Source: an uncultured Gammaproteobacteria bacterium
GTDB lineage: Bacteria > Patescibacteriota > Microgenomatia > UBA8517
NCBI GenBank assembly: GCA_964599625.1
Contig: CAZRGC010000004.1
Location: 11,705 to 75,704, forward strand
Direction: 5' to 3'
DNA length: 64,000 nt
Shown here: positions 36,701-55,881 of the stretch, one piece after another
Numbering within the stretch: position 1 is the stretch's first letter
Layout: every line of letters starts with the position of its first letter
The notes under the pieces: model-generated
Database searches by the model: none
Told to the model about the DNA's origin: nothing
The model's input: the letters and a program-made list of their open reading frames with translations, nothing else
Position numbers and translations under genes: made by a program

Positions 36701-37396
36701 TTATTGGATGGTTTTGGTGAGCTCAGTTACTTTGTCCAAGTCTCCGTCTACAATTAGTTCTAATTTTCCCCATGATTTGCCCAATCTATGATCTGTAACC
36801 CTGTCTTGGGGGTAGTTGTATGTTCTAATCTTCTCGCTTCTCATCCCGCGTCCTATGGCGGATCTGTAGCCTGCAATTGTCCTCAACTTTTCTTCTTCCT
36901 CCCGTTCCCAGAGCTTAGATCTCAAAAGTGATAGTGCAATTTGTCTGTTTTGCTCCTGAAATCGCTCTTCGCGTGCAGTTACAACGATTCCGGTGGGTTT
37001 GTGGGTAAGCCTAACTGCTGTTGCGACCTTGTTTACATTCTGACCCCCATGCCCGCCACCAGTTGTGAATTGCCACTCAAGATCTTGCTGGTTGATGCTT
37101 ACTTCTGCCTCTTTTACTTCCGGGAGAACAACTACTGTGGCTGTGGAGGTGTGGATTCTTCCTCTTTTTTCGGTGTCGGGGACTCTTTGCACTCTGTGGA
37201 CTCCTGATTCGTTTTTGAGGACACCAAAGACACCCACGCCTGATATCCTGACGGTCTTTTCATCAAGTTGGATAAGTTTCCAGTTCTTTTTGAGCGCGTA
37301 GCGCATATACATTCTAAGAAGATCAGCCCCCCAAAGCTTGGCTTCGTCGCCACCTGTGGCTCCGCGGATTTCCAAATATACGGTAGAATTTTCCAT
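36701..37396 (-). CDS. Class I peptide chain release factor (RF1-like) lacking N-terminal domain 1
   Basis: GGQ motif ([12 protein letters not shown]). Codon-reader region [20 protein letters not shown] aligns with RF1 [20 protein letters not shown]. Starts at the domain-2 equivalent ([13 protein letters not shown]). The gene begins 15 nt after the rpmE stop, with no in-frame upstream extension. Confidence 0.8.
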
Positions 37397-37411
37397 GGGG
37401 GGTGGCCGGTG

Positions 37412-38658: not shown

Positions 38659-39861
38659 TTATTTAATTAAAGAAACCATGTTTTCAAAACTTGTGTTAAT
38701 TTGCTCACCAGTTGTAAGGTTTTTAAGAATCACTGAACTGTTGCCAATTTCATTGGGACCAATTATTACAACATATGGGATTTCCTTTTTGTTTGCGTAT
38801 TTGAGTTGTTTGTCTAACTTTGTGCTTTCGGGGTAAAGCTCAGTGTTAATATTTGCACTCCTTAAATTTTTGGCAACTTCCAAGCTTTTTTCTGCTACCT
38901 CTTCCGAAAATATAGTTACAAGGACTTTGGTGTTTTTTTCTGTGGGTATTAAGTTCAATTGATCTGCAGCCTCGACCGTTCTGTCAAAGCCGAATGCGAC
39001 ACCGGTTCCGGGAATATCAAAACCGGTTAAACGTTTCATCATTCCGTCATACCGCTCGCCACCACCAACAGAACCCACTGTGTAATCCTCAATTACGATT
39101 TCCCAGATTGGTCCTTGTGAATAAGAAAATGACCTGGCTAGGGTTGGTTCAAACCTGTAAAACTCACTGCCAAAGTCTGATTTTTCAAGGTATTGGGTTA
39201 TTTTATTAATGGTTTCGTCGGGTTTAATATTCAAAACTTGATCGAAATATTTTTCCGCAGCTGCTTTTTCTATGCCCTTGTTTATCATGTCGTTAAGCAC
39301 GCCTTCTTTCCCAATCTTTTTAAGCTTGTCGATGGCAACTATTGCTTCGTATGGGATATCTTTCATTAGATCACGGTTGTTGAATATAACTACGGGTTTT
39401 TTGAAGCCAATTGTTAAGTATGTATCCAAATTCTCTGCTATCACTTCAGCGTCTGCTGAGGGGGTTTTGACGCCAAAAATGTCGACATCAAATTGCGTAA
39501 ACTCCCGATATCTTCCTCGTTGAGTGTTTTCTGCCCTGAAAACTGATTGGCATTGAAATCTTTTAAACGGAAAAACTAGGCTATTTTGATTAGCTGCAAC
39601 ATATCTGCAGGTGGGGACAGTTTGGTCATACCTAAGCATAACTTCGCGGCCGCCATTGTCGGTAAATTTATAAAATAGTTTTTCATCTTCCCCGATTTCA
39701 CCCTTGAAAAGGGAATAGGGCTCAAGTGTGGGTGTTTCGATTTGCTCAAAACCCCATCTTTGTGCCACTTTGATCATCTTGTTTTTTACCCATAAACGTT
39801 TAGCCGTATCAGTTGGCAAAAAATCACGAAAACCTTTTAATGTCTGTAGTTTTTGGTTCAT
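38659..39861 (-). CDS. hisS: Histidine--tRNA ligase
   Basis: Class II motifs (GFRDFLP..., FQCQSVFRAENTQRGRYREFTQFDVDIFG, GGGERYDGM). C-terminal anticodon-binding domain. Confidence 0.95.
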   Translation of the reverse strand: MNQKLQTLKGFRDFLPTDTAKRLWVKNKMIKVAQRWGFEQIETPTLEPYSLFKGEIGEDEKLFYKFTDNGGREVMLRYDQTVPTCRYVAANQNSLVFPFKRFQCQSVFRAENTQRGRYREFTQFDVDIFGVKTPSADAEVIAENLDTYLTIGFKKPVVIFNNRDLMKDIPYEAIVAIDKLKKIGKEGVLNDMINKGIEKAAAEKYFDQVLNIKPDETINKITQYLEKSDFGSEFYRFEPTLARSFSYSQGPIWEIVIEDYTVGSVGGGERYDGMMKRLTGFDIPGTGVAFGFDRTVEAADQLNLIPTEKNTKVLVTIFSEEVAEKSLEVAKNLRSANINTELYPESTKLDKQLKYANKKEIPYVVIIGPNEIGNSSVILKNLTTGEQINTSFENMVSLIK

Positions 39862-39888
39862 TTTTTTAATATTAACATTATTGGTAGT

Positions 39889-40542
39889 TTAAATGTTGCC
39901 GCCATTATATTTAACAAAAAGCAATCTTTTGTTGTTCTCGGGGTCCGGGGGTAAACTTTCACCTCCTAGGACGAGTTCCATGCCCATGTTTCTGGCAGTG
40001 AACGCCATTGTGCTTGTGCGTGATGTTCTCAAAAGAAGCGGCAATCCAAGATCTATTCCTTTTTGGGCAATCATCCTTGTTATTTGGCCTCCGATGCCTT
40101 TTCCTTGTAACTCTATCTGGACCCCGACCTCCGATACGTAAAAATAATTTATATTTGGACGTATTACACTCACTATAAACTCACGGTTTTCTTCATTATA
40201 TTTTTTAAATGCAAAATCTTCACCGGAAAGTATGTAGCCCCAACCAAAACCTAATATTTTTTCATTCTCCTTGAAAATATAGCCGGTAGAACCTTCACCC
40301 GAAATTTCTTTAAGAATATATTCTGACGTCTGATTGATTGGGTAGGCTTCTTCCAGAACCACACCATTGCATTCCTCACACGGACCATTTGTTCCGGGAG
40401 GGAAGTTGTCGCCATAAAATTTGTCTTTAATGGGACATCTGCTTACCTCGTTCCATTCCGGACCAGCAAACACAGCCGCATACGTTCCTGCGGTTTTACG
40501 TATATCCTCGTTGTTTAATTTGTTTAGTATTTCTATGCTCAT
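39889..40542 (-). CDS. GNAT-family N-acetyltransferase
   Basis: Motif A QGKGIGGQITRMIAQKGIDLGLP. SD AAGGAGG 8 nt upstream. Confidence 0.55.
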   Translation of the reverse strand: MSIEILNKLNNEDIRKTAGTYAAVFAGPEWNEVSRCPIKDKFYGDNFPPGTNGPCEECNGVVLEEAYPINQTSEYILKEISGEGSTGYIFKENEKILGFGWGYILSGEDFAFKKYNEENREFIVSVIRPNINYFYVSEVGVQIELQGKGIGGQITRMIAQKGIDLGLPLLLRTSRTSTMAFTARNMGMELVLGGESLPPDPENNKRLLFVKYNGGNI

Positions 40543-40566
40543 TTTTGTTTACCTCCTTTGTTTTCC

Positions 40567-40622
40567 ACCAAAAAACCCTCGTTCACACGTCGAAAGAAAA
40601 ATCTTTCAACAAGGAACGAGGG
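40567..40622 (-). terminator. Intrinsic terminator (distal of two tandem terminators ending the upstream RNA locus)
   Basis: Stem CCCTCGTTC (40576-40584) pairs with GAACGAGGG (40614-40622). On the minus strand it is followed by U6. Also T-rich on the plus side. Confidence 0.6.
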
Positions 40623-40642
40623 TCTTTTTGTGGCTTTATAAC

Positions 40643-40667
40643 CAAAAAAAAGGACCTCCCGCGGTCC
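40643..40667 (-). terminator. Intrinsic terminator (GGACC-GCGGGA-GGUCC + U8) on minus strand
   Basis: Minus-strand hairpin GGACC/GGTCC (40652-40667) followed by a U8 run (plus-strand A8 at 40643-40650). Confidence 0.7.
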
Positions 40668-41527
40668 CATCCTTATTTCTTTGAGATATTCCTTCTCAAA
40701 GCTCTTAGTCCATCTCTACTTTTGCGGTGACAATGGTTGGAATCTTTTTACGCTTTTCCCTGCGTCAGGTATTTTGACCTGCTCCTCGCTTCGCGTGACT
40801 GAAGCTCAAGCGGATTTATTAAAATGTTATTGTAGTCTACAACTTATTTCTAACTTGTCAAATATTAGGCAAAGAAATACCCAGTTTCTTAAATGTCCGA
40901 GGACGAAACTGGGTTTTCTGACTTCCAAGGTTTTTACACTGCTAGTAGCAGAGCTCGGTTAACCTCGGACTCAGTACAGAGCATCTGATTCGGCACGTCT
41001 ACCGAACCGCTCTGGTTAAGGGATAGTGGGAAGGCCCGGGTTTTTTGTTTTACCTTCAGGTGGAGCGTCCGCAATCTGCGAATGCTGATCTGCACCCAAA
41101 GCAAAATCCCTTATTGCCTTCCAATTGTTGTGCCCGCGCGCGGCACTGCTAAAGAGCAACAACACCCTGACCAGTCAAGAAAAGGGCCACTTCCAGAAGC
41201 GTCACTACAGCGATGCTGCAGTTGGGTGTGACTCCCGGAGGGACCAAGTTCGCGGTTGAAATTCGCGACACTCCCTTTTCTATCCTAAGGCGGAAGAATA
41301 TACGTCCCGTGTGTCCATCGTAGCAGATGGGGGACCAAATCGGCTTAGCCGCACTGTGTGCAGGCGTTGGCCACAACTTGAGTTGAATGTGATTGGATCC
41401 GTACGGATCGAAATTTTCGGCCTAACTTACAAGCCGAAACCGGCGACCAAACAAGTGATCGGCGTTTTGGGCCTGTAAGTGCGCTGACGTGTAAATGTCT
41501 ATGTGCTTACCGGAATATTATTCCAGT
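40668..41527 (-). ncRNA. Unassigned structured RNA locus (about 860 nt); contains RNase P RNA-like conserved elements
   Basis: The minus-strand promoter TTGACA-17-TATAGT (see 41534..41562) predicts a TSS near 41527. Two tandem intrinsic terminators lie at 40567-40667. No credible protein ORF. Contains GC-rich hairpins and motifs resembling RNase P CR-I (GGAAGUGGCCC...CAGGGUG), CR-IV (AAGGCAAUAAGGG) and CR-V (ACAAAAAACCCGGGCCUU). Confidence 0.45.
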
Positions 41528-41533
41528 GTTGAC

Positions 41534-41562
41534 ACTATAGCATAAGAAAGAAGATTTGTCAA
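41534..41562 (-). promoter_or_regulatory. Near-consensus sigma70 promoter (TTGACA-17nt-TATAGT) on minus strand
   Basis: Plus-strand TGTCAA at 41557-41562 and ACTATA at 41534-41539 read as TTGACA and TATAGT on the minus strand with a 17-nt spacer. Confidence 0.65.
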
Positions 41563-41649
41563 GTATTATAGGCTACTAGAGCTTTGCTCATGGGATATTT
41601 ATATATAGTTTCTATTTTTGGGGTAATTCTAGCCTCTATTTTAACTTTA

Positions 41650-42120
41650 GAAAAAGAAAGAGACCTGGTCCTTTTGAATTTTTGGATGCGTTTTACGGCA
41701 TTTATTATTCTTGGGACCAGGTCTCGGGATTCGGGATAGGGGAGATGTTGTTTCTTGGGATTCGGGTTGGGCGTAGGCTGAAGGTCGCAAGTGACCAACA
41801 AAATACCGAGATGGCAGCCTAGCTTCCGAGGTTCCTTTGAAATCTCCCTTTCGTGCTTGATCTAAATGTGATGTAAATCGAGCTGAAAGCTTCCACACTT
41901 TGTCCCTGCCGCTTTTGTTGTCGGGCAATCCGAAGCGAAGGCCAGTGGCCTTGTCCGGTGGTTGGGACGATCGGGGAAGCTAAAGTGACCGGCTATCCAG
42001 CCAGTCTGGTATTGGTACTTGCGGACCTAAAGCTGCCGGCCAAAAATGGTCGGCAAGTTGAGATCCGTAAGCACACGGCTCTTTCTACACAATCAATATG
42101 TCAGGTGCAAGCTATCGCGA
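41650..42120 (-). ncRNA. Unassigned structured RNA locus (about 470 nt)
   Basis: Minus-strand promoter TTGACA-18-TATATT (42127-42156). Terminated by a long 12-bp stem (GAGACCUGGUCC...GGACCAGGUCUC) followed by UUUCUUUUUC. No ORF. Contains the direct repeat GGGAUUCGGG x2 on the complementary strand and several GC-rich helices. Confidence 0.4.
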
Positions 42121-42126
42121 AGGTAG

Positions 42127-42156
42127 TAATATACCACAGTCATTTTTGACTTGTCA
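42127..42156 (-). promoter_or_regulatory. Near-consensus sigma70 promoter (TTGACA-18nt-TATATT) on minus strand
   Basis: Plus-strand TGTCAA at 42151-42156 and AATATA at 42127-42132, with an 18-nt spacer. Confidence 0.6.
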
Positions 42157-42175
42157 ACACTATGTTGTGAAGCTA

Positions 42176-43216
42176 CTATGGGTTTTGGGTAACAAACACA
42201 GATCTTGCCATTTGAACACCTGTGCCGGAGCTTAAAGTTACGTAAACTAAAGAACTACCTTTTTCTATGTCTGTAGCTTTGATTTTACCTTGGTCTTCGG
42301 AAGCAAAATCATAAATAACAGTTTTCTTGTCATAGGCAATTTTTGTATCCGAGCCGTCGGAGCTTCGGGTAATACTAATGTCTTTTGTTGTTACTGTATT
42401 AACACTGGCAAGTACAACCTCCGCTTTGGATTCTGTAATCGCGTCCGTGATCAAAATCCTCTGGGCCGACAAAACCGAAGATGAATTTATGTAGCCCATT
42501 CCCACAATAAAGTCTCCGATTGCAATATCGGGAACCTTAACATTTCTAGTTGTTGTGCCTGAACTTTTAACAACACTTGTTTCGTCTTCTGAAGTTGCAA
42601 TCTGTTTTATTTCGCCTTTTGCTGTTTTGATTTGAATTGTGGAATCAGCAATATCGGTAACTGTTCCGATATATGCCTTGGGTTTATTGAGTGCCGCCTC
42701 TACCTTTTCTTGCACCTTTTGCCTAATTGAAGCTTCGTCTGATGCGTCAGACGAAGCAGGTGAACCAATACTTCCTCTGATCTGAAACGACGATGAGTAA
42801 ACCACTAATACTTTTTCAATACTTGGGGCGCCACCTTCGTCAAAACCTGTTAACTTTATTTGGTTGATTCCTGCAATCAAATTTATTTCCTCTGAAAATG
42901 TACCGTCCTCTTTGGACTTTGTAATATAGTCCTCGCTTTCACCGGAGATAATGAGAGTTGTGGAGGGTCTCGTAATGCCGGATATATTTATTGAACTTGT
43001 AGTTACAACATCTTCGTTTTCCGGTTTGTCCAGAGTGATCTTGAATTCCGAAGATGGTGTGGGGCCGGGTGTTTGTGTCTGTCCGGGTTGGGGAGTTGGT
43101 TTTATAGCCGAGTTAATTCGCCAAACGCCAAAAGCGATGATAAGACCAAAGGTAATACCAATACCTGCTGCCCATAAAACTTCTTTTCGCATCGCCTGAC
43201 AATATAATTGAAGCAT
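42176..43216 (-). CDS. Membrane-anchored hypothetical protein (Ser/Thr-rich, probably extracytoplasmic)
   Basis: N-terminal TM (VLWAAGIGITFGLIIAFGVW), a Pro/Thr-rich linker, then beta-rich Ser/Thr/Ile-rich repeats. No known domain. Confidence 0.4.
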   Translation of the reverse strand: MLQLYCQAMRKEVLWAAGIGITFGLIIAFGVWRINSAIKPTPQPGQTQTPGPTPSSEFKITLDKPENEDVVTTSSINISGITRPSTTLIISGESEDYITKSKEDGTFSEEINLIAGINQIKLTGFDEGGAPSIEKVLVVYSSSFQIRGSIGSPASSDASDEASIRQKVQEKVEAALNKPKAYIGTVTDIADSTIQIKTAKGEIKQIATSEDETSVVKSSGTTTRNVKVPDIAIGDFIVGMGYINSSSVLSAQRILITDAITESKAEVVLASVNTVTTKDISITRSSDGSDTKIAYDKKTVIYDFASEDQGKIKATDIEKGSSLVYVTLSSGTGVQMARSVFVTQNP

Positions 43217-46584: not shown

Positions 46585-46669
46585 TGCCGGGGAGAGGAGT
46601 CGAACCTCCACGGGCTTTTGGGCCCACAGGTTTTTGAGACCTGAGCGTCTGCCATTCCGCCACCCCGGC
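46585..46669 (-). tRNA. tRNA-Leu (anticodon CAA), class II with long variable arm
   Basis: Reverse complement reads GCCGGGG-TGGCGGAATGGCAGACGC-TCAGGTCTCAAAAACCTG-TGGGCCCAAAAGCCCGTG-GAGGTTCGACTCCTCT-CCCCGGC-A. Anticodon loop CUCAAAA. 7-bp acceptor stem. No CCA encoded. Confidence 0.85.
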
Positions 46670-54993: not shown

Positions 54994-55071
54994 TAATTTA
55001 GCTTCATTTTATATTCAAAAATATTTCTCAAATAATTTTTTACAACCCACAAGACGGGGAGTAGGGGTGGA

Positions 55072-55090
55072 GGTGTGCACACCCTATAAT
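55072..55090 (+). promoter_or_regulatory. 12-bp palindrome GGTGTGCACACC abutting a TATAAT hexamer (operator-over-promoter candidate)
   Basis: Perfect palindrome at 55072-55083, immediately followed by CTATAAT (55084-55090). Lies in a gene-free AT-rich region. Confidence 0.3.
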
Positions 55091-55808
55091 TATAGGATAT
55101 TTGAATGTGAAAGTAAGATAGTTTTCACGAAAATTATAGGACATTTTCACAAATAGCGACCAAAAGACAAGTGCGAACAAAAACCGAACAAATTAAACAA
55201 CAGTTGGTGATACACAATGATATAGTTATCGTGCCTAAAAAAGCTAAAAATATCAAGTTTTACCCCTATTTAGTTATGTGGATATCTTGGAATATTAGCG
55301 GCATCAAAAGGTGGGTCACGCTACCGCCCTTAAATGTATATTGATGCCATGAATATAGACCAATCTGTTGGGAGAGTGCTTGTGCTGCAGAATACAAAGA
55401 CAATTTTAGAGTTATATTCTCCCTTGAGGCGTTGGTGAAATTATATGCGAACATGTGTTTGAGGATTATTTTAGTTCAATTAGTTATGTCGCACAATAAT
55501 ACTTTTGCGACGTATAATAAAACTATTTAGGGAGTACATTCAATAATGTATTTAGCCAAAAGTTTCGAATAACTTTACTTGCTTTTTTGGGTCCTGATTT
55601 AACCTGATAATTCTCCTTTTTAAAAACGTCATAAATTATGTCGCCCCGAACATATGCCGAATAAAAAAAACAACTTTTCAACCGGTGCCCTTTCCCCGAC
55701 TCCCCCGCAATTTGCAAATTAACGTTTACCCCGAAAATACGGGATAAACAAAGATGATGAGTATGTAGTCTTTTTGTTTAGACAGGCCTTAAAATCGATT
55801 ACAGAGGG

Positions 55809-55828
55809 CCCTGCCTGCCGGCAGGCAG
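55809..55828. repeat. Perfect 20-bp GC-rich palindrome CCTGCCTGCCGGCAGGCAGG
   Basis: Exact inverted repeat in an otherwise AT-rich spacer, 50 nt upstream of the 55882 gene. Could be a hairpin/terminator or a protein-binding site. Confidence 0.5.
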
Positions 55829-55881
55829 GTTGTATTTAGGCATGATTTGCGCCAAATATAAAATGTATGTAGAATTGCCGA

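Follow-up and report, generated by a model that had tools for sequence, protein, structure and literature searches.

The stretch of DNA considered here, 64 kb of contig CAZRGC010000004.1 from a member of Candidatus Woesebacteria (candidate phyla radiation, CPR; Patescibacteria) and called the window in what follows, contains a gene-free block of about 1.6 kb between the gene for a 346-aa protein (p346) and an operon that includes the histidyl-tRNA synthetase gene hisS. The transcription signals of the block lie on the minus strand. A preliminary description of the block had found no credible open reading frame (ORF) in it, and this was borne out: between the start of a 217-aa gene at 40542 and the stop of the p346 gene at 42176 (40543-42175), the longest ORF on either strand has 93 aa. 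The features listed in that description were all recovered, none of them more than 1 nt from its place, but the division of the block into two tandem loci did not hold, a third promoter (P3) having been overlooked. We now read the block as what are probably three separate minus-strand transcription units, namely two long structured RNAs (RNA1 and RNA2) and a histidine T-box-type leader (Table 1), with unit boundaries that are predictions from sequence signals. RNA1 and RNA2 are rated a new class because no described family fits; they are likely to be paralogous members of an undescribed family of long structured non-coding RNAs (ncRNAs) found in one clade of Candidatus Woesebacteria. In this text "promoter P2" is the promoter of RNA2 and "hairpin P2" is a hairpin of the family.

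Homologous loci (L numbers) were collected by scanning one genome per species with the neighbouring DnaB, which gave 80 loci, nearly all from Candidatus Woesebacteria or Microgenomates metagenome-assembled genomes. Some 75 Woesebacteria loci keep the arrangement in which p346 stands divergently from the genes for a metallo-beta-lactamase (MBL)-fold hydrolase and then DnaB. In most loci hisS, or a HisRS-like gene of 290-300 aa, comes 20-300 nt after p346, and most Woesebacteria loci have no RNA at this p346-hisS site. The first RNA1 homologues came from L006 (CAZRJH010000001; DnaB 96% identical), L007 (LBVU01000002) and L048 (CP066686); a metagenome scan for the conserved hairpin motif, and p346 relatives combined with contig look-ups, added L101, L103, L104, L108, L109, L111 and L112. 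The family totals 11 distinct lineages, the window included, with RNA1 homologues in L006, L103, L007, L048, L104, L109, L108, L111 and L112 and a full-length RNA2 homologue in L006 only (7568-6895). RNA1 is always directly 3' of the p346 gene, and members of the family sit on the same strand between this gene, which encodes a surface protein, and the his operon, each ending in a long-stem terminator (stems of 10-15 bp). In a p346 tree all carriers fall in a single clade, and one origin of the family followed by losses is the simplest reading of the sequences. Of 16 matches to the hairpin P2 motif in the metagenome collection only three are real, L101 and two (L098 and L102) that come from the L007 genome, and a scan of IMG/VR gave a single chance match inside a coding region. 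No further copy of the hairpin was found in the rest of the 64-kb window or in about 85 other Woesebacteria loci, and a search via the 217-aa gene returned five relatives only, on contigs too short upstream.

The two near-consensus sigma-70 promoters of the preliminary description, P1 and P2, were both found by a consensus scan. Since the 4-kb neighbourhood holds eight promoter-like sites against a shuffle expectation of 6.8±2.9, which is not an excess, the case for these promoters being real rests on conservation: both are positionally conserved in every homologous locus, a TTGACA-17/18 promoter of the P1 type is found in 10 of the 11 lineages, and its -10 element is TG-extended in nearly all. 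A counterpart of P3, TTGACA-16/18-TATAAT-like, lies in the same place in L103, L048, L104, L109 and L108. At the other end of RNA1, the 12-bp stem described earlier is present as terminator T1; our terminator scan, with a loop limit of 8 nt, skipped it on account of its longer loop. The two hairpins that had been assigned to the 3' end of the second RNA also exist but belong to the leader, as H1 and H2. RNA2 has a terminator of its own (T2), and so the second transcript is predicted to be about 655 nt and not about 860 nt; the earlier size for the first, about 470 nt, stands. Both terminators are conserved with compensatory changes, T1 in L006 and L103 and T2 in L006 (ACCCAGUUCC/GGAACUGGGU, then UUUUAACUUUUU). 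The bodies of the two RNAs have a G+C content of 51-54% (40900-41500 and 41800-42100) against 35-45% in the flanks, and none of the other gaps of the window that were folded is equally G+C-rich or structured.

Table 1. Positions of the features discussed, first in the window and then in homologous loci; transcript ends are predicted.
Feature	Position	Strand	Basis and remarks
p346 gene, upstream neighbour, 346 aa	42176-43216	-	ORF; membrane-anchored, Ig-like/Glucodextran_B-like domain, weak Pfam PF09136 match
Promoter P1	42157-42128	-	Consensus scan; TTGACA-18-TATATT, TG-extended -10, 11/12 consensus
RNA1, type A	~42121 to 41650	-	Promoter and terminator signals; ~470 nt, structured, non-coding
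Hairpin P2 of RNA1	42014-42077	-	Alignment and consensus fold; ~23 bp, invariant core AACUUGCC...GGCAGCUU, family signature
Hairpin GGUC-ACUUGC-GACC, 3' domain of RNA1	41783-41796	-	Invariant in type A; type B covaries GUGAUC/GAUCAC; GACC/GGUC in L104
C-rich stretch CAUCUCCCCUAUCCC	41733-41747	-	Immediately 5' of the terminator; no variation among window, L006 and L103
RNA1 intrinsic terminator T1	41650-41725	-	12-bp stem around ~40 nt: GAGACCTGGTCC (41725-41714) with GGACCAGGTCTC (41671-41660), then TTTCTTTTTC / UUUCUUUUUC
Promoter P2	41562-41534	-	Consensus scan; TTGACA-17-TATAGT, TG-extended -10, 11/12 consensus
RNA2, long form of the family	~41527 to 40871	-	Promoter and terminator signals; ~655 nt, structured, non-coding
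RNA2 copy of hairpin P2	41422-41485	-	Match of a covariance model trained on RNA1-type hairpins only
Hairpin GUGCC-GCGCGCG-GGCAC of RNA2	41130-41146	-	Self-complementary GCGCGC loop; identical in L006
RNA2 intrinsic terminator T2	40870-40914	-	DNA: ACCCAGTTTC (40914-40905) with GAAACTGGGT (40888-40879), then ATTTCTTT; RNA: ACCCAGUUUC/GAAACUGGGU, then AUUUCUUUG / AUUUCUUU; directly before promoter P3
Promoter P3	40861-40834	-	Consensus scan; TTGACA-16-TAGACT, drives the his operon leader
His T-box-type leader	~40827 to 40570	-	~260 nt, ultrashort Stem I; runs into 217-aa gene and hisS
Specifier hairpin GCUUC-AGUCACGC-GAAGC	40788-40805	-	Short hairpin loop; CAC (His codon) at 40797-40795
T-box sequence GAUGGGACCGCGG	40643-40671	-	Inside hairpin H1; UGGG at 40669-40666
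Hairpin H1, first terminator	40668-40643	-	Sequence and scan; GGGACC-GCGGGA-GGTCC, then T8 (U8)
Hairpin H2, second terminator	40624-40570	-	GACCCTCGTTC...GAACGAGGG (as RNA GACCCUCGUUC/GAACGAGGG), then T6 (U6); arms invariant in 10 leaders
Operon under the leader	38659-40542	-	ORFs; 217-aa protein 39889-40542, hisS 38659-39861
p346-side palindrome, L007	8095-8125		
p346-side palindrome, L104	5010-5045		
p346-side palindrome, L109	3508-3545		
Leader-linked tRNA-His gene, L048	7179-7251	-	
Leader-linked tRNA-His gene, L020	1887-1959	-	
Leader-linked tRNA-His gene, L024	7862-7934	-	
Leader-linked tRNA-His gene, L039	7833-7906	-	
Leader-linked tRNA-His gene, L004	176-250		
Leader-linked tRNA-His gene, L005	120-192		
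Short HisRS-like gene, L006	4514-5398		One of many
Short HisRS-like gene, L110	3555-4433		One of many
Short HisRS-like gene, L103	7653-8531		One of many

Neither RNA1 nor RNA2 is accounted for by a known family. Rfam 15 was scanned at the gathering score over the whole window, where it returned a tRNA-Leu (46585-46669) only, and at E<=10 with permissive filters over 40300-42400, where the sole notable match is a weak T-box in the 3' part (40647-40819; E = 0.0016; 27 bits, where the gathering score is 93) and where matches within RNA1 and RNA2 are noise (snoRNA, CRISPR-repeat and viral untranslated-region models, E>4). The models of RNase P RNA, transfer-messenger RNA (tmRNA), signal recognition particle (SRP) RNA and 6S RNA gave no match at either setting in the window or in seven homologous loci, and the same holds for covariance models (CMs) of OLE, ROOL, GOLLD, HEARO and other large Rfam ncRNAs; in the seven loci the search yielded tRNAs and one weak T-box match only. 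ARAGORN found no tmRNA. The earlier view of large structured RNAs of no known class is upheld by these searches, and its further points, the non-coding nature and the minus strand, by the results given below; its alternative, a compound rnpB/ssrA/ffs cluster, has no backing from Rfam or ARAGORN. That RNA1 and RNA2 are highly divergent forms of RNase P RNA, tmRNA, SRP RNA or 6S RNA that the models miss is hardly credible. They do resemble stable RNAs in size, strong promoters and predicted structure, and CPR RNAs are often divergent, but they match no model, are not universal, and have a middle region that is hypervariable between close relatives. Moreover, an essential housekeeping role is incompatible with RNAs that are missing at the locus from most Woesebacteria and that were lost twice within their own clade.

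The substitution patterns of the homologues are equally unlike those of genes. A coding reading is ruled out by stops in every frame of the homologue translations, by indels between the window and L006 that are mostly not multiples of three (17 of 20; the other three are), and by substitutions that fall evenly over the three column phases with no 3-nt periodicity. RNA1 and RNA2 are 75% and 73% identical, respectively, to their counterparts in L006, the closest relative, at a distance where 4-fold synonymous sites are saturated (41% identical in DnaB, 35% in p346 and 20% in the MBL gene); by this comparison of sequences, both RNAs are under purifying selection. The possibility that the block is decaying or selfish DNA (a pseudogene, the remnant of a mobile element or a duplicated leader), or that it holds small-protein genes, is scarcely tenable. 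The narrow distribution, the tandem duplication, the hypervariable middle and the losses in some lineages would be in keeping with it, but they have to be set against an identity of 73-75% kept at neutral saturation, an excess of compensatory changes, the absence of any variation in blocks of 20-30 nt, conserved promoters and terminators, the lack of any coding signal and the lack of similarity to phages or plasmids (blastn against phage and plasmid collections gave no match).

Hairpin P2 is of particular interest as the signature of the family, shared by all 11 lineages. It starts about 45 nt past the predicted 5' end; its core, which contains a C·C mismatch, hardly varies, and its basal and apical stems covary. 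In accordance with the definition of the family, the AACUUGCC/GGCAGCUU-type core lies at a distance of 45-110 nt from a consensus promoter. On ten sequences, 92.5% of the cells of the hairpin are paired and 9 of its 23 pairs change on both sides, values reached by none of 500 shuffles; slid controls were 25-46% paired. Beyond the hairpin, compensatory changes are found in 28 of the 104 pairs of the consensus fold of RNA1 type A (window, L006 and L103) and in 16 of the 120 pairs of type B (L007, L048, L104 and L109). Since each consensus structure was tested on the very sequences that had produced it, single-sequence folds were also checked on the substitutions of the partner. This gave 10-12 compensatory double changes for RNA1 and 21-22 for RNA2, against 2-7 and 4-9, respectively, when the 3' partners were slid by 1-3 nt. 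The minimum free energies, -165.3 kcal/mol for RNA1 (z = -6.8 versus dinucleotide shuffles) and -240.1 kcal/mol for RNA2 (z = -6.0), have plus-strand equivalents of z = -7.7 and z = -3.45. We call the minus strand because of the promoters, the U-tracts found 3' of hairpins on that strand only, the G-U/G-C/A-U series in covarying pairs and the CM scores (72 versus 17 bits; 71.6-72.2 bits for hairpin P2 of RNA1).

Types A and B have one architecture in common. It begins with a short 5' hairpin and a long-range helix P1 (GGUUCGCAA/UUGCGAACC in type B and GUGUGCUU/AAGCACG in type A), the 5' strand of which immediately precedes hairpin P2. A middle region of 150-300 nt follows, unalignable between the subtypes and hypervariable among close relatives. 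The 3' domain is closed by GGGAGA/UCUCCC in type A or GGGG/CCCC in type B and has an apical hairpin whose stem covaries; next come a C-rich strand and the terminator, with a stem of 10-15 bp enclosing a small hairpin. UCUCCC within the C-rich CAUCUCCCCUAUCCC is complementary to the upstream GGGAGA, the two forming the proposed helix P3; the C-rich counterparts are UACCCCUUUU in type B and UUCCCACUAUCCC in RNA2. RNA1 also has a direct repeat, CCCGAAUCCC(A/G)AGA, at 41752-41765 and 41722-41735 (minus strand), the second copy overlapping the start of the 5' arm of the terminator, and L006 has the same pair (CGAAUCCCGAGA and CGAAUUCCGAGA).

Several more specific ideas, weighed by eye, were dropped for want of covariation. 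A leader peptide over hairpin P2 has no conserved frame, and an anticodon or acceptor mimic in this hairpin lacks covariation. Pairing of the 3' arm of hairpin P2 with CCAACCAUUG of the T-box leader fails in type A, and kissing of the ACUUGC loop with the base of hairpin P2 fails in L007. Sites of the UGGN type for binding a tRNA end in the RNA1 terminators are not conserved, and a CAY "specifier" at the GGUC-ACUUGC hairpin is CAA in L104. The type-B lineages differ from the window upstream of RNA1: between the end of the p346 gene and promoter P1 they have a G+C-rich palindrome (e.g. GUUGACAGGGUGCGACCCUGUCAA) with a U-rich tail, which to judge from its sequence probably terminates p346 transcription. 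Since the window has no such palindrome, p346 transcripts may run into RNA1 there.

The relation of RNA2 to RNA1 became apparent from hairpin P2. The CM trained on RNA1-type hairpins only finds the copy in RNA2 (41422-41484) with 31.1 bits (E = 1.6e-6) and the L006 copy with 19.5 bits (E = 0.004); elsewhere in the 64-kb window it finds nothing but the hairpin of RNA1 and weak opposite-strand echoes of both. With nhmmer, the first ~105 nt of RNA2 align to RNA1 of L104 (E = 5e-4, in a small database), and the context upstream of promoter P2, CCTATAATAC-TTGACA, is common to the P1 promoters of other lineages. Judged by these matches RNA2 is a tandem paralogue of RNA1, with a relatedness detectable only in the 5' domain and hairpin P2: blastn of RNA1 against RNA2 gave no similarity, and a profile hidden Markov model of RNA2 finds only itself. 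RNA2 is collinear with the RNA of L108, a basal lineage, with hairpin P2 at 66-116 versus 88-139, GCGCGCGGG at 388-396 in both, and a C-rich CCCACCAU near 500 in both. The GCGCGC-loop hairpin of RNA2 also has a counterpart in L108, GCAUCCC-AGCGCGC-GGGAUGC, at an equal distance from the 5' end. This collinearity makes RNA2 look like the family's long form, either retained or re-acquired. Between the window and L006, blocks of 20-30 nt in RNA2 are unchanged, 55 of its first 56 nt agree, and 26 of the 171 pairs in the consensus fold of the two sequences show compensatory change.

How RNA1 and RNA2 might act can be proposed more tentatively. An invariant hairpin core, covarying stems, a hypervariable insert and promoters like those of stable RNAs together make up the pattern of an RNA that scaffolds a ribonucleoprotein (RNP). 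Because RNA1 and RNA2 show a pattern of this kind, we favor stand-alone, abundantly transcribed RNAs acting in trans, which would chiefly be expected to serve as scaffold or decoy for a protein (or other RNA) that recognizes the invariant P2 core; the variable middle would then be tolerated as a species-specific expansion. Such RNAs would be neither cis-acting attenuators nor housekeeping RNAs, and no conserved antiterminator alternative, specifier or T-box sequence was found in either of them. We advance this trans-acting mode as a possibility that may well prove wrong, and a number of observations weigh against it or against the picture of the family on which it builds. The 5' and 3' ends of both RNAs are placed by consensus signals only, folding energy does not settle the strand of RNA1, and the scaffold role was deduced from anatomy alone. 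The long-range helix P1 is backed mostly by differences between the subtypes and not by covariation within them, cross-subtype alignments of the middle region of RNA1 are poor, and the consensus fold of RNA2 was tested weakly, on two sequences only. The family is narrow and dispensable, with two nested losses (L110 and L015), and L101 is cut down to hairpin P2 and a terminator directly before hisS, much like a cis-leader.

The form found in L101 brings in the main rival, according to which RNA1 and RNA2 are leader or attenuator modules of the his operon, stacked in front of the T-box, with tRNA-His, HisRS, a metabolite or some other signal setting the read-through at T1 and T2 and in this way adding to the transcription that enters the T-box leader and hisS. 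The three units are indeed co-oriented and directly upstream of the hisS operon in every lineage. In L101 the only good promoter is P1, followed by hairpin P2, the terminator and, 37 nt on, hisS, and by inspection GGUUGG in the 3' arm of hairpin P2 could pair with CCAGCC in the 5' arm of the terminator. About 65 nt separate the RNA1 terminator from hisS in L007, with no 10/12 promoter detected between them, and tandem regulatory RNAs are a known architecture (PMC9481103). However, an independent consensus promoter P3 is kept between RNA and leader in all six loci that have a full T-box leader, and in L006, where the downstream operon is no longer preceded by the T-box leader, RNA1 and RNA2 are both retained. 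The terminator stems, of 10-15 bp, are G+C-rich with no conserved competing antiterminator found, and there is no T-box sequence, specifier or riboswitch-family match at E<=10. The short form of L101 is a deletion derivative and not ancestral, since L101 is nested inside the clade. Tandem riboswitch/T-box leaders (architectures of the PMC9481003 type; PMC9481103) are similar in having serial structured modules with terminators before one operon, but here each module has its own consensus promoter and RNA1 and RNA2 share no motif with the T-box module. We consider a cis-acting role unlikely.

A second way of acting in trans would be by base-pairing. Of the 3' features, only the C-rich segment that adjoins the terminator on its 5' side is common to types A and B, L108 and RNA2, and the C-rich (UCCC-motif) small RNAs (sRNAs) of Firmicutes, e.g. 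RsaE/RoxS, block Shine-Dalgarno sequences. If exposed, CAUCUCCCCUAUCCC or UUCCCACUAUCCC could occlude the G-rich Shine-Dalgarno sequences of targets in the same manner; genes of this genome use strong GGAGG ribosome-binding sites (e.g. AAGGAGGU before 40542), and strong independent promoters and terminators would suit an sRNA. We regard this as improbable all the same, because RNA1 and RNA2 have 5-10 times the length of typical seed-type sRNAs, selection extends along their whole length instead of one seed, a good part of the C-rich segment is paired to GGGAGA or GGGG (helix P3) in the consensus folds, and no specific target complementarity beyond 4-5 nt was found.

Few bacterial ncRNAs exceed about 400 nt and have extensive conserved structure, and those characterized so far are ribozymes, RNP cores or RNA-only nanocages (PMC12286853). 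For OLE, ROOL and GOLLD, cryo-EM shows oligomers made of RNA alone, in which kissing loops and A-minor contacts join the subunits (PMC12286853). RNA1 and RNA2 resemble these three in length (470-680 nt), as G+C-rich islands in an A+T-rich genome, in having their own promoter and terminator and no coding capacity, and in combining many covarying helices with invariant single-stranded blocks; as in GOLLD, one part is conserved and another much less. The GCGCGC loop of RNA2 and L108, known here from sequence, is a candidate intermolecular kissing loop. RNA1 and RNA2 differ from the three in that no sequence or structure match and no homology was found, in their fixed chromosomal locus as opposed to phage or prophage, in their restriction to one Woesebacteria clade and in a much faster-evolving middle. 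It is conceivable, if quite doubtful, that RNA1 and RNA2 represent the first large "ornate" RNA class in CPR, acting by their own three-dimensional architecture as a self-assembling RNA-only particle, for which the conserved GCGCGC loop of the long form might provide kissing contacts, or as a ribozyme, and not as leader or seed sRNA. In the literature searched we found no such large structured ncRNA reported for CPR/Patescibacteria, and nothing relevant on structured RNAs or T-boxes in CPR or Woesebacteria. CPR genomes are of about 1 Mb with little non-coding DNA; in this one, 1.1 kb is taken up by two paralogous RNAs that have near-perfect promoters and are under clear purifying selection. 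Should RNA1 and RNA2 be functional RNPs or regulators, they would point to lineage-specific RNA biology in an uncultured group, a significance that is to be read for 11 lineages of one clade and from sequence-based evidence only.

The third unit, downstream of RNA2, is in our estimation more probably than otherwise a histidine-specific T-box-type leader ahead of the hisS operon. It carries CAC, the codon that matches the synthetase gene downstream, in a hairpin whose loop AGUCACG is invariant and whose stem covaries (GCUUC/GAAGC, GUGUC/GACAC, UUGGA/UCCAA and CCGAA/UUCGG). It also carries UGGG, matching the discriminator and CCA. The tRNA-His genes of relatives have the anticodon GUG, an encoded G-1 and the discriminator C73 (C73 in six genes, one of them with an encoded CCA), and because the discriminator is C73 the UGGG of the leader is complementary to the 3' CCCA of tRNA-His (C73-C74-C75-A76). 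The motif GATGGNACCGCGG occurs in the window at 40659-40671 only, with no copy in RNA1 or RNA2. Among RNA1-carrying loci the conserved elements are the 5' end AAUAAAUCC, the AGUCACG hairpin, CAACCAUUGUC, GAGAUGGA and GAUGGGACCGCGG, and a consensus fold of ten leaders has 50 pairs, 18 of which show compensatory change. The same elements are present in at least 10 Woesebacteria outside the RNA1 clade, and the leader is conserved in at least 16 Woesebacteria loci, with GAUGGGACCGCGG invariant. As the leader is conserved outside the RNA1 clade it is older than RNA1, which would have been inserted between p346 and the leader.

Like T-boxes of the Rfam family RF00230, the leader precedes an aminoacyl-tRNA synthetase operon, has a specifier that matches the synthetase, contains the ...GGAUGGGACCGCGG T-box sequence with its UGGG, and ends in intrinsic terminators; RNA1 and RNA2 have none of these signatures. 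It most resembles the T-boxes with an ultrashort Stem I, reportedly described by Sherwood, Grundy and Henkin in 2015 for actinobacterial ileS, its own Stem I being cut down to a short hairpin with the specifier in the terminal loop. It departs from the family in that its score (27.0 bits for the window, 26.2 for L103) stays below the gathering threshold of 93, because most of Stem I is absent (78 model positions are deleted). Other departures are that no canonical A2 antiterminator helix can be drawn, that there is a second conserved terminator, that UGGGACC is itself the 5' arm of the first terminator, and that in several relatives the controlled unit begins with a tRNA-His gene.

We propose that the leader would read tRNA-His through the CAC of the hairpin loop and through pairing of UGGG with the CCCA end, and would thereby gate two terminators before the hisS operon. 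By inspection, binding of the tRNA to UGGG would compete with H1, the 5' arm of which is the T-box sequence; the GAGGUC thus freed, from the 3' arm of H1, could pair with GACCCUC in the 5' arm of H2 and block this terminator, a relay with little covariation behind it. The alternative pairings that can be drawn by hand are AAGGA:UCCUU versus GGGACC:GGUCC and the GAGGUC:GACCCUC just named versus H2, and both show little covariation. H1 lacks a U-tract in L104, where H2 is left as the sole possible terminator, and this fits the proposed relay from H1 to H2. Such a leader would extend the T-box mechanism to CPR in a stripped-down form, with a hairpin-loop specifier and a T-box sequence inside its own terminator, and would offer a natural minimal design useful for T-box studies.

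The consensus fold also pairs UCCGY at the 5' end of the leader (40813-40817) with GCGGR in the loop of H1 (40657-40662; alignment columns 9-13 with 203-207). Both sides are nearly invariant, and a long-range pairing or pseudoknot is possible. In several relatives a tRNA-His(GUG) gene in which G-1 and C73 are encoded stands directly after the leader, ahead of the protein genes (Table 1); on sequence grounds, such a leader would control the gene of the very tRNA that it senses. The window has no such gene, and an initial suggestion that GGTGGA downstream of H2 is what is left of a deleted one was withdrawn, as it is a conserved spacer also seen in loci without the tRNA. The leader of L112 (2525-2650) still begins with AAUAAAUCC and still has the CAC specifier hairpin (GGAGUCACGAUCC), and a plain terminator, GGAACC-GAAA-GGUUCC followed by U6, replaces the 3' half of the T-box directly before hisS.

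Two of the proteins encoded next to the leader merit a remark. The product of the 217-aa gene, called a GNAT earlier, has no Pfam match at E<=0.001 and five relatives among 5.8 billion clustered proteins, one of them with PF00583; in relatives, this gene and one for an M20 peptidase separate the T-box leader from hisS. The gene at the hisS position in many Woesebacteria has only 290-300 aa and aligns to HisRS residues 1-297, so this short form is without the anticodon-binding domain; the hisS of the window is full-length (400 aa).

Elsewhere in the window, 54994-55881 is a stretch of 888 nt with 36% G+C and no ORF of at least 100 aa. At 36701-37396, on the minus strand, is the gene for a 231-aa protein like class-I release factors, with GGQ present and PDT at the PxT position but without the N-terminal domain. 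No prfB-type frameshift site (CTTTGAC) was seen near 37400, and the gene starts 15 nt after that of ribosomal protein L31 (37412-37720).

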